The notes under the pieces are model-generated. The model ran no database searches. It saw only the letters and a program-made list of their open reading frames with translations, and was not told the origin of the DNA. DNA of 35,191 nucleotides, from IMG/VR virus record IMGVR_UViG_2713896779_000022; one strand, 5' to 3'. Positions 24,766-35,191 of the stretch are shown here, one piece after another. A program made the position numbers and the translations under genes. The DNA comes from a virus (taxonomy: Duplodnaviria > Heunggongvirae > Uroviricota > Caudoviricetes). Every line of letters begins with the position of its first letter. Position 1 is the stretch's first letter.

Positions 24766-25077
24766 TTATTCAGGAAATAACGCCCGGATATTTCCGGCCA
24801 TCTGACTGGTTATCTGTGCGGTTGATACTGGCTGTGATGCGGGGCGTTCTGTCCTGGTTTGTGTCAGGGATAACGCTTCATCGTCAGCCCATGCAGCCAG
24901 TCGGTAAGCCTCTGCCGGATTAATTTTCATAAGTGCCAGTCCGGCCAGAAAAGCCACGCGTTGACCACTTTTGCGGGCTTCTGGTGTAAGGCTGTCCAGC
25001 CAGGCGCATGCTTCGCCTTCGTTCTTGACGGCGGCGGGCTTCAGATAGAAACTTATCCGTCTGGTTGGTGTCGTCAT
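24766..25077 (-). CDS. parR: ParR/StbB-like centromere-binding adaptor
   Basis: Start at MTTPTRRISFYLKP with RBS AAGGAG 7 nt upstream, 4 nt after parM stop; resembles R1 ParR N-terminus (RRTIAFKL...LTAGLALY vs RRISFYL...FLAGLALM). Confidence 0.7.
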   Translation of the reverse strand: MTTPTRRISFYLKPAAVKNEGEACAWLDSLTPEARKSGQRVAFLAGLALMKINPAEAYRLAAWADDEALSLTQTRTERPASQPVSTAQITSQMAGNIRALFPE

Positions 25078-25081
25078 TGGT

Positions 25082-26041
25082 TTACTCCTTGTCCATTGCG
25101 TACAGCCCATTAACCAGAGCAAACTGTGGCACCCCGTCCGCGATGAAAGTCGCATTAACTCCGCAGGCTTCGCGGATAGCGGGTGCCACAATCTCCGCCC
25201 CGCCACCGACAACCATCACCCGCCCGTAACCCGAAAAGCCCGCCAGCGCGCGGATCACGCGTTGTTTCAGTGTTTCTTCCTTTTCACGAATAACCGCCAT
25301 CAGGCTGGCGTAATGCGCGTCATTGTGGATGTGCTGGCGCAACCAGGCTTCATCATGGCGATGTTCGATAATGGTATTGGCGATGTGGTGACTGGTACGC
25401 ATACCGTTAGTGGCCATCACCGACAGTACGGCATCGGCCATCAGGGAAACGCCTACGTGTGGATCGCAAAACACCTGGCTGATACCTGCCAGTTGCCCCT
25501 GAACCTTTGCCACATCCAGTGTGGTTCCGCCTAAATCCACAATCAGCAGGGATTCAAACGGACTCATGTCAGCCAGTGCTTTAAAGCCAGCCGGAATGGA
25601 TTCAGGCATAACCCGTACGTTACGGATAGTGAATGCTTCGCCGTTCTGGTACTCCACCGGGCGCATAACGTTCGATTTTTTGCGGCTGATGTTGGCCATA
25701 TCCGGCTGTGCGTTTGTGTCGAAATACTCGCTCAGTGGCAGGGTGACAACCACATCCACCTCCTGTGGCGTGATGCCTGATTTGACCAGTGCGTGATGAA
25801 TGGCAATGACATTCACATCGCTGTACTGGTATTGCGTGTCGGTCGTCTGGACAAAGCGATCGCTGACCGGATCAAAACCATAGCGCACGCCATCAAGCAT
25901 GTAGTTCGCGGGCTGCGTGCCACCGAACGGCGCAGACCATTCCGACTTGAAGCTGTTCGGGCTGATGGCGTTGCGGCGTTCGCCGTTCTCAGCCCATGCC
26001 AGCTTGATGTTGGTGGAGCCGTCGTCGATACAAATTTTCAT
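25082..26041 (-). CDS. parM: ParM/StbA actin-like plasmid segregation ATPase
   Basis: 319 aa; collinear resemblance to R1 ParM along the whole length (IDDGSTNIKL.W, ISPNSFK.EW, YSDVNV.A.HHAL, IRNV.VMPESIPAG, DLGGTTLD, GGGAE, LVNG.Y). Confidence 0.9.
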   Translation of the reverse strand: MKICIDDGSTNIKLAWAENGERRNAISPNSFKSEWSAPFGGTQPANYMLDGVRYGFDPVSDRFVQTTDTQYQYSDVNVIAIHHALVKSGITPQEVDVVVTLPLSEYFDTNAQPDMANISRKKSNVMRPVEYQNGEAFTIRNVRVMPESIPAGFKALADMSPFESLLIVDLGGTTLDVAKVQGQLAGISQVFCDPHVGVSLMADAVLSVMATNGMRTSHHIANTIIEHRHDEAWLRQHIHNDAHYASLMAVIREKEETLKQRVIRALAGFSGYGRVMVVGGGAEIVAPAIREACGVNATFIADGVPQFALVNGLYAMDKE

Positions 26042-26072
26042 GTCGCTTTTCCTTATGTTGATTAATTAATCG

Positions 26073-26181
26073 TTTACAGGATTTTTAAATCCCGCTTTTG
26101 CCTGTTTTGTGCGCGCCTCATATATCGCGGCACGTTTTTTGCTCATTTACGGGATTTGTGAATCCCGTTTCTGTCTGTTTT
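26073..26181. repeat. parC-like centromere/operator: two ~36-bp direct repeats each with a GGATTT(n2-4)AAATCC palindrome, flanking the parM promoter
   Basis: TTTACAGGATTTTTAAATCCCGCTTTTGCCTGTTTT (26073-26108) and TTTACGGGATTTGTGAATCCCGTTTCTGTCTGTTTT (26146-26181); the second copy overlaps the last 12 codons of gene A. Confidence 0.6.
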
Positions 26182-28959
26182 TTTGTTTCCACTGGTCAGG
26201 CTACCCCGCAGCAGGTCTGCTTTGCGGTGGGCGCGTTCAGTGGTTTCACTGATTCTCTGTGCGTGCTCTGCGTCACGGATGGCGCGCAGCATGTCAGAAA
26301 GCACGGTAACGGGGGTGGGCATGGTGTTCTGGTCCTGCTGAAGTGTGGATACCAGACGTGCGGCGGCTTCGGGGTCTGATGCCCCCAGCTGTTCCAGATA
26401 GCTGGCGACCGGGTTATGGCGGATCTCCGTGCTGCTTACGCCGTGATTACGGCTCAGGCGCTGCCAGAGCTGCGTGATTTGGCTGTCCGGGCGGGTATCC
26501 GGTTTGCGTACAATTTCAAATCCCTGCGGTGCAATGATGCTGCCGTCAACGTACAGGCTGCCGCCCCGTAACAGGTGCTGCATCTGCTGTTCACCAATAT
26601 GCAGGCCGAGAGATTCAGCAGACTCCCGCCATTCTTTAGCGAGTAACTCGTGGTTATCAGGCAAAGGCTGTGGCTGTTTGCGGCTCTGTGTCCAGTTCTG
26701 CATTTCATCGCTGCTGTTTTTTGCCTGTTTGTCACGAAGCGAACGCATCAGCGCCCGGCGTTCGTGCCGTTTCAGTGAATGCATCCATTCGTTCACTTCA
26801 ACGCCGTCAGGAAGCTGCGGCCACGGTGCTGGCCGTTCTTCCGGCTGTTCTGTCCCGTTGTTGTCCGTTTCCTGTACACGGGGACAGTTATTGCCACGAG
26901 TCCAAGGGGCGGCAGGGCCGCCCTGAAGGTCAAAACCATTTTCGTGGGCGTTGTCTTCCGGTTCTGGTTTACGTCTTACCAGCTTCCAGTTATCCGGATG
27001 CGTGCACACACGGGAGGATTCCCCGATGAGTGGTGACCAGATCCCGTAAATCTGTACGCTCTGTTCGCCGTAATCGTTCAGCTCATCTGCGAGGTCGTAG
27101 GCGGTGCGAATCAGGTAGTCCTTGCGTGGAACAAGCACGCCACCCTGTTTTTCAATGTAGGTGGCAAAACACCCGGCATCGGCGGCAGCGAGTACCGCAT
27201 CCATTGCATCATCTTTCAGCCGTTGCGGGCCTTCCGGATTGCGTGCCATCTGGCTGGCAAGGCGGCGCAGTTCACGCCACACCTGACGGGAGGGGATGCC
27301 AAAGAACTGGAACTGACGGACCCGGTGAAGGCGCGCCCAGCCGATGGCGCGCTCCACGCTCTCGGCCATTGATTTACCTGTTTCGTGGTCAACGCGTGGC
27401 TTGCCCGTTTTCGGGTCGATGCCATCCACGGCGCGGCTGTCCAGGTTCTTTCCGATGTAGGTGGCGATGTAGCTGGTTGGCGTGCCTTTTGAGCCGTCGA
27501 CGTACTCCGCCTTAAAACGCGGAGTTATGTCATTGCCCTGCTCGTGGCGGTCTTCCTGAATGGCAATATCGCAGACGTGGGACACGATGGTTACAATCTC
27601 GTCAGGATGAGCAAAAACCATCATGTGCCAGTGCACCGTGCCGTCATGATGAGGCTCCACCGTGCGGATGCCATACCAGCGCAGGCCGTCGCGGTTCAGT
27701 TTTTTGCGGACCGCCGCAAAAAACGTGTTAACCAGGTAATCGCTGGAGTCGTGCATAGTGGCCCCGTTCCATTTGGGATTCGGATGACCGTTCTCCGTTG
27801 TTGCGTGGTATTTTGACGGGCAGGTGACAGTCAGAAACACCGCTCTGTCGCCACGGGCTTCGGCCAGAAGTTCCAGCCCCTTCATGGTGGCCATCATTTC
27901 TGCCTTACGGTGAACCGGGTTACTTACTCCCGCGTAATACACTGTCTCGAGATCAATCGTGAACCCGTCTTCATTTTCCAGCATGAAACTTTTCAGGAAA
28001 TCGCGTGTTTTCTCGCGCTGTGCGCGAAACTCGCTTAACGCGTCCTGGCTCAGATAGGGTGATGTTTTTCTGGAAACCAGACAGGCGGCGCGGAGTTGTT
28101 CTTCTCTCCACTCGCAACGTAACAGCCACAGTTTGCGTTTCCACCATTCCGCACAGGTCAGGCGAAGGATTGCGCCCGGCAGCAGCTCCGTGTCCGGTTC
28201 GTTCCTCCGGTCTTTGTCTGTTGTCAGTGCGTCATAATGTGGAGGCATGGCGTGCAGGTGTAACGCCATGCGGGCCAGCATCTGATACGCCTTCAGCGTT
28301 ACATCCATGGTCAGTTCGCCATCAGTCGCGCCAAAGCCATCGCAGAGTTTTTCGAAGGTGCTGCTGAACATCGCCGCCGTCATGGTGGCCAGCGTCTGTA
28401 TCTGGTGTTTGTTGAGCTGCGGCAGGTAAAGCAAATCGTCCAGGCGTTCGCGTCCGGCAAGGGAGCGATAACCCGGTGTCAGCCAGCGGTGATCGGTGCG
28501 GTCCAGACGTTCGAATATTTTGCGCAGGGTTCCGCGCGCGTAGCGTTCAGCCTGCCAGCTCTTTTTGCCTTTCTGGCGATCGGCTTCCTGTTTTTTGCGC
28601 AGGAAAGAGAGGTGGCGGCTCAGAGGTTCACGCAGATAAACGGGAAGCACCTTCAGTGTGGCAAAAGCACGGGCCACCGGGTCTTGTTCTGTTGCCTGAC
28701 GCTTGCTGATGATGCTTTGTGCCAGCTTTTCACGCTGTCCGGCTTCCTCAAGGGATGCCATGAGTTTTTTACCCACGGTGGATTGTGCGAAAAAGGCTTC
28801 CTCCTTCGCTTCCTGTTCTTCCAGAGCCTTTTTGTCTGCCTCAAGGTAGTAACGGATGGCGCGTTGCAGGTCGGTTTCAGTTTCCTGCCTGTGCTCCGTA
28901 AATCTGGCCGGATCAATGGCTGGCCGTGGTTCATTCCAGCTCCATGCAAACTCATTCAT
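26143..28959 (-). CDS. A: replication initiation protein A (rolling-circle endonuclease)
   Basis: Start at MNEFAWSW (ATGA overlap with upstream ORF); contains HUH-type motif TVHWHMMVF and catalytic Tyr pair in YIATYIGK; ~938 aa, longer than P2 gpA. Confidence 0.9.
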   Translation of the reverse strand: MNEFAWSWNEPRPAIDPARFTEHRQETETDLQRAIRYYLEADKKALEEQEAKEEAFFAQSTVGKKLMASLEEAGQREKLAQSIISKRQATEQDPVARAFATLKVLPVYLREPLSRHLSFLRKKQEADRQKGKKSWQAERYARGTLRKIFERLDRTDHRWLTPGYRSLAGRERLDDLLYLPQLNKHQIQTLATMTAAMFSSTFEKLCDGFGATDGELTMDVTLKAYQMLARMALHLHAMPPHYDALTTDKDRRNEPDTELLPGAILRLTCAEWWKRKLWLLRCEWREEQLRAACLVSRKTSPYLSQDALSEFRAQREKTRDFLKSFMLENEDGFTIDLETVYYAGVSNPVHRKAEMMATMKGLELLAEARGDRAVFLTVTCPSKYHATTENGHPNPKWNGATMHDSSDYLVNTFFAAVRKKLNRDGLRWYGIRTVEPHHDGTVHWHMMVFAHPDEIVTIVSHVCDIAIQEDRHEQGNDITPRFKAEYVDGSKGTPTSYIATYIGKNLDSRAVDGIDPKTGKPRVDHETGKSMAESVERAIGWARLHRVRQFQFFGIPSRQVWRELRRLASQMARNPEGPQRLKDDAMDAVLAAADAGCFATYIEKQGGVLVPRKDYLIRTAYDLADELNDYGEQSVQIYGIWSPLIGESSRVCTHPDNWKLVRRKPEPEDNAHENGFDLQGGPAAPWTRGNNCPRVQETDNNGTEQPEERPAPWPQLPDGVEVNEWMHSLKRHERRALMRSLRDKQAKNSSDEMQNWTQSRKQPQPLPDNHELLAKEWRESAESLGLHIGEQQMQHLLRGGSLYVDGSIIAPQGFEIVRKPDTRPDSQITQLWQRLSRNHGVSSTEIRHNPVASYLEQLGASDPEAAARLVSTLQQDQNTMPTPVTVLSDMLRAIRDAEHAQRISETTERAHRKADLLRGSLTSGNKKTDRNGIHKSRK

Positions 28960-34358: not shown

Positions 34359-35191
34359 TGTACTGGCAATAGCGGACACTACCATTTGTTCTTTTTTTAA
34401 GCAGCCATCTGATGATATTTTTCCCTGAAGGCTGCCGGGGAGATATTCCCCAGACGAGAGTGACGACGCTGACGATTGTAGAAAATCTCAATGTATTCCC
34501 GTATTACTGAGATGGCTTCATCCCGGTTATTAAAACGATAGTGGCTCAGGCTCTCATTTTTCAGCGTTCCCCAGAAGCTTTCCATCGGAGCGTTGTCGTA
34601 ACAGTTACCTTTACGCGACATTGATGTTTTCAGACCAAACTGCTCCTGTATGACCCGGTAATCGTATGCGCAGTACTGTGAACCTCGATCAGAGTGGTGG
34701 ATTAGCCCGGCAGGTGGGCGCTGGCTCCTGAGCGCCATAAACAGAGCTTTACCTGTCAGCTCTTTTGTCATGCGCTCTCCCATGGCGTAGCCGACAATTT
34801 CGCACGTATAAACATCTTTGATGCCAGCGAGGTACAACCATCCCTCCTGTGTGGCAACATACGTCAGGTCCGCCACCCAGACCTGATTTGGTGCTGTAGG
34901 AGCGAACGTCTGGTTCAGCAGATTTGGCGCAACTGGCAGATTGTGGTTCGAGTTCGTAGTCGCTCTGAACTTGCGTTTCTGCTTACAGCGTAGCCTTAGC
35001 TCCTTACGAAGACGTGCCAGTCGGTCACGACCAACGATGATGCCATTCTCTGCCAGCTCCGTCTGGAGCCGCCGGGTTCCATATGTTTCGCGAGTGCGGA
35101 TATGTGCCACCTTAATCTCCAGTTTTAGCCGCTCATCACTTTGTTTTCTGTCTGAGGGTTCATGCTGTACCCAGTTGTAATAACCGCTCCT
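34359..35191 (-). mobile_element. IS3-family insertion sequence (distinct from the left-edge IS), inserted in int; continues beyond window
   Basis: Terminus begins TGTACTG at 34359 (IS3/IS150-type end); OrfB-like transposase on the minus strand stays open to the window edge. Confidence 0.8.
34397..35191 (-). CDS. IS3-family transposase OrfB (partial, N-terminal part and OrfA outside window)
   Basis: DDE-domain blocks (VWVADLTYV, HHSDRGSQY, CYDNAPMESFWGTLK); frame remains open upstream of the track start to position 35191. Confidence 0.85.
   Translation of the reverse strand, partial: RSGYYNWVQHEPSDRKQSDERLKLEIKVAHIRTRETYGTRRLQTELAENGIIVGRDRLARLRKELRLRCKQKRKFRATTNSNHNLPVAPNLLNQTFAPTAPNQVWVADLTYVATQEGWLYLAGIKDVYTCEIVGYAMGERMTKELTGKALFMALRSQRPPAGLIHHSDRGSQYCAYDYRVIQEQFGLKTSMSRKGNCYDNAPMESFWGTLKNESLSHYRFNNRDEAISVIREYIEIFYNRQRRHSRLGNISPAAFREKYHQMAA

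Follow-up and report, generated by a model that had tools for sequence, protein, structure and literature searches.

A duplicated palindrome at the junction of replication gene A and a ParM-ParR cassette in P88-like prophages: a candidate split centromere into which the upstream gene is read

The stretch of viral DNA analysed in this work (hereafter the window; 35,191 nucleotides, IMG/VR record IMGVR_UViG_2713896779_000022) carries on its minus strand a replication gene followed by a partition cassette. Gene A, which encodes a rolling-circle replication endonuclease, occupies positions 26143 to 28959 (stop included) and is 938 amino acids long in this allele (Pfam Phage_GPA, E=1.4e-127); it starts with the ATG at 28959, in an ATGA overlap with the upstream open reading frame (ORF), and PGAP gives it the same start. 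Downstream of it lie, on the same strand, parM (25082 to 26041), encoding an actin-like segregation ATPase of 319 amino acids (StbA_N, E=1.6e-81; ParM C-terminal domain, E=1.3e-68) and preceded by the ribosome-binding site AAGGAAAAG (26054 to 26046), and parR (24766 to 25077), which starts 4 nt past parM and encodes a small adaptor of the StbB/ParR family with 103 amino acids (Pfam Plasmid_stab_B, PF10784, E=4.7e-25). The same 103-amino acid gene is annotated in phage P88, and ParR/StbB proteins from plasmids (R1-type, IncI and IncL/M) can be aligned to its product. Partly within the end of A and partly in the leader of parM, a direct-repeat search detects two parC-like repeats on the minus strand, both of them kept in a prophage of Hafnia: a distal one (26143 to 26181), which in this allele makes up the last 12 codons and the stop of A, and a proximal one (26070 to 26108), in the A-parM intergenic leader.

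The prophage in the window can be assigned to the P88-like phages (genus Xuanwuvirus, Peduoviridae) of the P2 family, as its A-parM-parR DNA is 93–97% identical to that of P88, P884B11, 520873, Chuche, PhiR44_2 and Shae_phiSM; a 301-nt query taken at the junction matches the chromosome of E. coli O121 str. RM8352 with 100% identity. The A-parM junction was found in 1356 of 5426 complete E. coli genomes, in three copies or fewer each, and is chromosomal in 1511 of its 1513 places in these genomes. The strains bearing it include O157:H7, O121, O145 and O111, and it is among the commoner prophage modules of E. coli. One 34,461-bp circular E. coli record deposited as a 'plasmid' (NZ_CP148288.1) holds an entire P88-like phage genome, in which integrase, cox, A, parM and parR are all present, and could be either an excised or induced form caught by the assembly or a true episomal state. 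We considered a plasmid-prophage lifestyle as the reason for the presence of parMR and rejected it as a general state, given the chromosomal location of the junction and the integrase on the circular record, a gene that is present in P88 as well. P88-like phages are integrating prophages, yet they retain an intact plasmid-type partition cassette. As for the copy in the window, IS-type transposase ORFs (rve integrase core) lie close to both its ends (61 to 951 and 34397 to 35110), no P2-type tyrosine integrase was found among the ORFs scanned at its regulatory end, and two genes adjoining parR are incomplete or frameshifted according to RefSeq; this copy may be partly decayed.

With its Phage_GPA domain and a nick-site sequence within its own gene, the A protein belongs with the replication proteins A of the P2 family. 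It is 31% identical to P2 A over residues 98–750 (P2 A 53–687; BLASTP, 9e-79) and 35% identical to 186 A over residues 179–745 (186 A 133–649; BLASTP, 1e-92). The homologue of the ori nick-site region, aligned to the annotated origins of P2 and 186, is at 26884 to 26913 on the minus strand, with the nick equivalent at about 26903; it reads GCCGCCCCTTGGACTCGTGGCAATAACTGT in the window versus GCCGCGCCTCGGAGTCCTGTCAATAACTGT in P2, and TG-CAATAACTGT is invariant across the four aligned sequences. Domain and nick-site region are what this A has in common with those of P2 and 186, whereas an extra N-terminal stretch, an SI7-like C-terminal domain and a lineage-specific tail of ~76 amino acids set it apart from P2 A, and neither P2 nor 186 has parMR downstream of the gene.

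An initial annotation of this DNA pointed out that A is ~180 amino acids longer than P2 gpA, which is numerically right (938 versus 761 amino acids, i.e., 177 more), and attributed the difference to fusion of the par module onto the 3′ end of A. This attribution stands for the extreme C-terminus, made by reading into the repeat, but not for the ~180 extra residues. Going by the BLASTP boundaries, the excess over P2 and 186 consists of ~45 amino acids at the N-terminal side and ~115 at the C-terminal side. Much of the latter is a conserved C-terminal domain (amino acids ~770–862; 26374 to 26652, minus strand) which matches no Pfam family, is missing from P2 and 186 A, and is common to the A of phages that carry no parMR. 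The A of Salmonella phage SI7 (Irrigatiovirus; 878 amino acids) aligns to residues 4–862 of the window's protein and ends six residues further on, with no parMR downstream, and HMMER, run exhaustively with the 198 C-terminal amino acids of A as query, identifies residues ~779–866 as the C-terminal domain of P0021 (841 amino acids), P0023 and P0034; a locus encoding an 840-amino acid A near-identical to P0021 (L301) also has no parMR. Both SI7 and P0021-type A proteins end 6–15 amino acids past the equivalent of residue ~862. Similarity search with the same 198-amino acid tail returned almost solely fragments of the same protein, the exhaustive HMMER search and tblastn on phages being the informative ones. 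More broadly, the domain is common to SI7-like and other P2-family replicases. Past it, residues 863–926 (26182 to 26373, minus strand) form a lineage-specific tail seen only in parMR-carrying relatives (E. coli Xuanwuvirus and Hafnia), the alignment of the Hafnia A to that of the window extending through residue 931. Comparison with homologues lacking parMR thus splits the extension: most of it is common to SI7- and L301-type A, and at most the last ~76 amino acids (863–938), together with the repeat, which itself holds only 12–20 codons, are confined to parMR lineages. Most of the extra length of A does not, by this comparison, come from a par fusion.

The two repeats are 39 nt each, 82% identical, and 73 nt apart from start to start, and they are the one outstanding repeat family upstream of parM. 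Their ungapped score of 18 was reached by none of the shuffles made, whether of the 2.4-kb region (200, dinucleotide-preserving; mean 10.9, maximum 14) or of the 159-nt leader (1000); the pair is real and non-random. Each repeat contains A-tracts in phase with the helix and, after them, one 20-bp palindrome with the consensus ACGGGATT-N4-AATCCCGT. The distal palindrome (26149 to 26168), ACGGGATT-CACA-AATCCCGT, is a perfect 8+4+8 on the gene strand, and across relatives its arms are kept and its centre is variable; the proximal one (26076 to 26095), GCGGGATT-TAAA-AATCCTGT, is imperfect in the window and perfect in P88-type haplotypes, where it reads ACGGGATT-TCAG-AATCCCGT. With up to two mismatches allowed, CGGGATT-N4-AATCCCG has two matches in 35 kb, both in the repeats, versus 0.15 expected by chance. 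The palindrome centres are 73 bp apart, or about seven helical turns, which would put the two candidate sites on the same face of the DNA.

The same arrangement is seen in the Hafnia prophage, whose repeat is 42 nt long and whose palindromes, GGGATTCATGAATCCC and GGGATTTGAAAATCCC, are spaced by exactly 73 nt. Retention of both palindromes and of their exact spacing at this distance argues against a neutral duplication. Within E. coli, we had expected lower polymorphism in the palindrome arms than at synonymous sites, and this expectation failed (pi of 0.058 in the arms versus ~0.06 at third codon positions, with a higher value, 0.165, in the palindrome centres), so that the constraint is visible only at Hafnia depth. 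Contigs were also scanned for GGATT-N4-AATCC-N54-64-GGATT-N4-AATCC, where ParM was found at 1 of 120 among the matches listed, which include unrelated repeat families from Desulfobacterales, Uruburuella and others. The 34-bp spacer between the repeats (26109 to 26142, minus strand) includes the stop codon used by P88-type A genes and a weak promoter candidate. On its plus strand one can pick out by eye a hairpin, GTGCGCGCC…GGCAC, imperfect and rich in G+C, with T6 after it; it is terminator-like and antisense to parM, is not called by the terminator scan, and is partially conserved in Hafnia.

That a repeat overlaps the last 12 codons of A, as the initial annotation had it, is borne out by the sequence (codons 927–938, at 26181 to 26146, read KTDRNGIHKSRK, followed by the TGA at 26145 to 26143), but the C-terminus quoted there is not the general ending of the gene. 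Where the par module has its left edge, a homopolymer (26178 to 26184, minus strand) counts seven A in the window and six in most relatives: A6 was found in 82 of the 87 sequences surveyed and A7 in the other 5, and the extra A shifts the A frame through the distal repeat. The C-terminus of A in the window is best described as a minority +1 frameshift allele, and RefSeq (PGAP) labels the gene 'frameshifted'. In the window the distal palindrome is read as AAC GGG ATT CAC AAA TCC CGT AAA TGA; in P88 and most relatives, with one A fewer, it is read as ACG GGA CTC ACG AAT CCC … and the stop comes 24 nt later (window equivalent 26120 to 26118); in L104, an IMG/VR contig discussed below, and in Hafnia it is read as CGG GAT TCA …, with the stop inside or just past the palindrome. 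In a set of 100 distinct haplotypes, the stop of the upstream ORF was found at seven different positions (89 haplotypes are P88-type and 5 window-type), and in all 100 this ORF enters the distal repeat. The isolated phage Chuche has the frame allele of the window and P88 the other, and since Chuche is an isolated phage the window's allele is probably harmless.

The reason why ORFs read into the repeat is a simple one. Its first half, AAAACAGACAGAAAC, is T-free, so any ORF entering it must read on; the upstream ORF, be it A or the unrelated zinc-ribbon ORF of some relatives, has no stop of its own ahead of the border and continues through this A-tract part until the first in-frame stop is reached. 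The use of all three frames and seven stops among the relatives means that the encoded peptide is not conserved, and the constraint on the junction is on DNA, not on protein. Even the identity of the overlapping gene is not fixed. In the IMG/VR contig L103 an 871-amino acid A ends after the conserved domain and is followed by a 155-amino acid zinc-ribbon-like ORF and then by parM; the last ~20 codons of this ORF (…KQTKTGFTNPVNEQKTRSDI*) are the same as those of P88 A, and its DNA becomes similar to that of the window and P88 precisely where the distal repeat begins on its 5′ side, nothing further upstream being similar; this breakpoint coincides with the homopolymer at 26178 to 26184. L104 carries the same zinc-ribbon-like ORF (145 amino acids) with a different ending, also inside the par leader. 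In both contigs (L103, 4516 to 4983; L104, 394 to 831) the stretch from A residue ~745 to the par leader has been replaced in mosaic fashion: A has another C-terminal domain there, 36% identical to that of the window, and is followed by the separate Cys-rich, zinc-ribbon-like ORF of 145–155 amino acids, in which no Pfam family scores above threshold. A second A homopolymer in the par leader (26135 to 26140) is also length-variable among relatives, and in L051, L150 and L005 indels in the spacer, some of them at this homopolymer, allow the upstream ORF to extend into the proximal repeat or past it, be it by slippage or by sequencing error.

Between the window and Hafnia, DNA identity steps up across the border, from 59% in the A tail to 77% in the par leader and 87–89% in parM. 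The left border of the par cassette coincides with that of the distal repeat, which belongs to the par module, and the overlap between A and the repeat is a by-product of the module junction, tolerated in all three frames: a different upstream ORF takes the place of A in L103 and L104, all three frames are used, and identity changes at the border. The initial annotation had proposed instead that a ParR site inside the coding sequence of A couples replication and partition control, the overlap itself being selected. The upstream ORF does extend into the distal repeat in every haplotype, and origin and par site are adjacent, but the overlapping ORF need not be A, no peptide is conserved across the frames and stop positions, the phages Chuche and P88 differ in frame, and the T-free first half of the repeat explains the read-in with no selection at all. 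We found no support for such coupling and hold it to be hardly credible.

What the repeats themselves are for is suggested by the company they keep. They form a repeated cis site just upstream of parM, as a parC would, and the pair accompanies parMR even where the upstream gene differs, as in L103 and L104. We therefore regard as probable that the two 39-nt repeats are a split centromere/operator (parC-like) of a type II ParM-ParR cassette, placed directly downstream of A. From its position and from what is known of the family, ParR, a presumed ribbon-helix-helix adaptor, would bind each palindrome as a dimer of dimers, and the bound sites, on one face of the DNA, would bracket the 34-bp spacer in the way known from plasmid R1 with its split parC. 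ParM filaments would then be captured by the complex of ParR and DNA, so that excised or replicating phage circles are pushed apart, and ParR may in addition repress transcription of parMR. The rolling-circle origin is ~0.75 kb away from this candidate par site.

The ParR alleles fit this picture in part. They are 43–87% identical, with an invariant N-terminus (RRISFYLKP, presumably the strand by which DNA is read), invariant N, I, F and P in the tail (NIRALFPE in the window) and a hypervariable linker in between; an invariant N-terminus and tail around a variable linker match the known layout of ParR, which has a ribbon-helix-helix at its N-terminus and, at the other end, the tail that binds ParM (PMC5016525). 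Among near-identical phages the ParR alleles differ by up to 57%, almost wholly in the linker (residues ~63–95), with ParM 98% identical, a pattern suggestive of alleles having been replaced, or of diversification, in the linker only. An allele 52% identical to that of the window has an identical N-terminus, and its repeats are the same, which leaves no co-variation of ParR and repeat to be read. ParR has no sequence match in the PDB, and its AlphaFold monomer, a low-confidence model (pLDDT 56.7), has helices at 20–29, 32–52, 54–61 and 86–100 and an unstructured N-terminus. In Hafnia (L098) A is 59% identical to that of the window at the amino acid level and ParR 73%. At the DNA level parM of E. 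coli and of this prophage are 87–89% identical and the adjacent A genes 59–68%, which suggests that the par cassette was swapped between the lineages more recently than A, or else is much more constrained.

The palindromes could, in principle, be bound by something other than ParR, such as a phage or host regulator controlling parMR or A. Two copies of a 20-bp palindrome on one face of the helix would suit operators in general, several HTH proteins are encoded in the window, and recognition of the palindromes by ParR is itself inferred. Such a regulator seems quite improbable to us, however, since the sites are always found with parMR, whichever the upstream gene, occur nowhere else in the 35-kb window, and have invariant arms to match the invariant N-terminus of ParR.

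Two further explanations place the function of the palindromes in RNA. In the first, which we find unlikely, they are intrinsic terminators on the plus strand, antisense to parM, which halt convergent transcription of the late operon or of cargo genes before it reaches A and the origin. The plus-strand terminase-portal genes do converge on parR and parM, a T-rich tract follows each palindrome on that strand and is kept in Hafnia, and the scan calls terminator-like sites at 26149 to 26168 in the window and at each of the two copies in Hafnia. The stems are weak, however (8 bp with four G-C pairs; −10.2 kcal/mol, z = −1.8), the proximal copy does no better than shuffles and has two mismatches in its plus-strand stem in the window-type haplotype, and the sites are ~1.8 kb past the end of the convergent genes, with other terminator-like sites nearer to it. 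Nor would termination explain the exact 73-nt spacing of the pair or its co-travel with parMR. In the second, hairpins in the sense mRNA would act as processing or stability elements separating the messages of A and parMR. The RNA around the distal copy does fold at −11 kcal/mol (z = −3.0), and read-through is likely, as the scan finds no sense-strand terminator between A and parM; but the proximal copy (z = −0.8) is again no better than shuffles, the common T-to-C change at 26162 (21 of 64 haplotypes) puts an uncompensated C-A mismatch into the stem, and Rfam gives no match, all of which makes sense-strand elements very improbable. We rejected RNA-structure readings as a class on account of the wobble pairs, which lie on opposite strands at the distal and the proximal copy, neither strand being consistently supported.

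If the repeats are a parC, as we favor, the comparison with the ParMRC of plasmids R1 and R100 is the obvious one to make. The two ParM proteins are homologous (the window's matches the R1 structure 1mwk over residues 2–316 with a phmmer E=2.5e-92, which identifies it as an actin-like ATPase, and is 46–52% identical at the amino acid level to plasmid ParMs), the ParR proteins are of the same Pfam family, the order site-parM-parR is the same, and upstream of parM there are in both cases blocks split by a short spacer, A-rich on the coding strand and phased by ~10.5 nt. The A-tract periodicity of the leader is 10.75 nt, a modest signal given that 51–77 of 2000 shuffles (~2.5–4%) reach it; by the same measure the parC regions extracted from an R1-type and an IncI plasmid have 10.5 nt and 10.25 nt, respectively. 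In R1 itself, five plus five tandem 11-bp iterons surround a clear −35/−10 promoter, which is looped out in the middle of the split parC, and one ParR dimer binds per ~10-bp iteron (PMC5016525). The window, in contrast, has two 39-nt blocks with one 20-bp palindrome each, clear tandem iterons of the R1 kind are not evident in its leader, where just the two long repeats are detected, and scanning for the consensus detects no promoter of sigma-70 type between the repeats, be it in the window or in the Hafnia leader. The autoregulated-promoter part of the analogy is for this reason unsupported, the one weak candidate, TGAGCA (26145 to 26140) and TATATG (26124 to 26119) with 15 nt in between, having been picked by eye only; parMR may instead be transcribed by read-through from the early operon. 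The setting differs too, the cassette of the window lying in an integrating P2-like prophage and abutting a coding sequence.

Where the characterised parC sites are arrays of 4–10 tandem iterons, the window has two palindromes. Should they prove to be a centromere, its layout, with one 20-bp palindrome seven helical turns away from the other, would be unlike that of any parC characterised so far. Units of this length may have a parallel, as Schumacher et al. (2007) are said to have found a 20-bp repeat to be the binding unit of the pSK41 ParR. The repeats of that Gram-positive plasmid are contiguous and in tandem (PMC5016525), unlike the two separated palindromes of the window.

The closest functional precedents, by analogy, are srpMRC of the SXT/R391 integrative and conjugative elements (ICEs) and AlpAC of the Corynebacterium prophage CGP3. 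Like the cassette described here, srpMRC is a type II partition cassette in a normally chromosomal element, which replicates by rolling circle once excised, and its srpC centromere, located in the leader of the ParM-like gene, is made of no more than four short repeats, direct and inverted (PMC4489591). It differs in that SrpR has no recognisable similarity to ParR (PMC4489591), that of the window being a PF10784 member, in that its host is an ICE and not a phage, and in that srpC was validated by EMSA and plasmid stabilisation, whereas the site in the window is predicted from sequence. AlpAC and alpS are likewise a prophage-encoded actin-like filament and a DNA-binding adaptor acting on phage DNA after induction (PMC4446434, PMC5539076); the actin-like family is a distant one, and both adaptor and sites are different. 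For the P88-type cassette, our literature search returned no description of its par cis site or of its role, and the P88 genome paper is silent on partition.

Two things follow for the reading of such loci. Modular recombination in phages can strip an upstream gene of its own stop, which is then borrowed from the regulatory DNA of the neighboring module, and such borrowed tails can flip frame, probably with no consequence; the 'frameshifted' pseudogene call on A probably concerns a dispensable C-terminal tail only. The overlap is an ordinary module-junction effect, and the candidate centromere is of a known kind with an unusual layout. Beside the replication origin of an integrating P2-like prophage found in ~25% of complete E. 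coli genomes lies a ParM/ParR cassette which is complete and conserved and has a compact candidate centromere, and the coordinates given above, together with the consensus, present twice 73 bp apart, make this candidate par site directly testable. By analogy, it is conceivable, and we advance it tentatively, that P88-like prophages use a minimal two-palindrome ParMRC centromere to segregate their excised or replicating circles. If so, these prophages would have a transient plasmid-like phase, as was shown for the SXT/R391 elements and suggested for AlpAC of CGP3.
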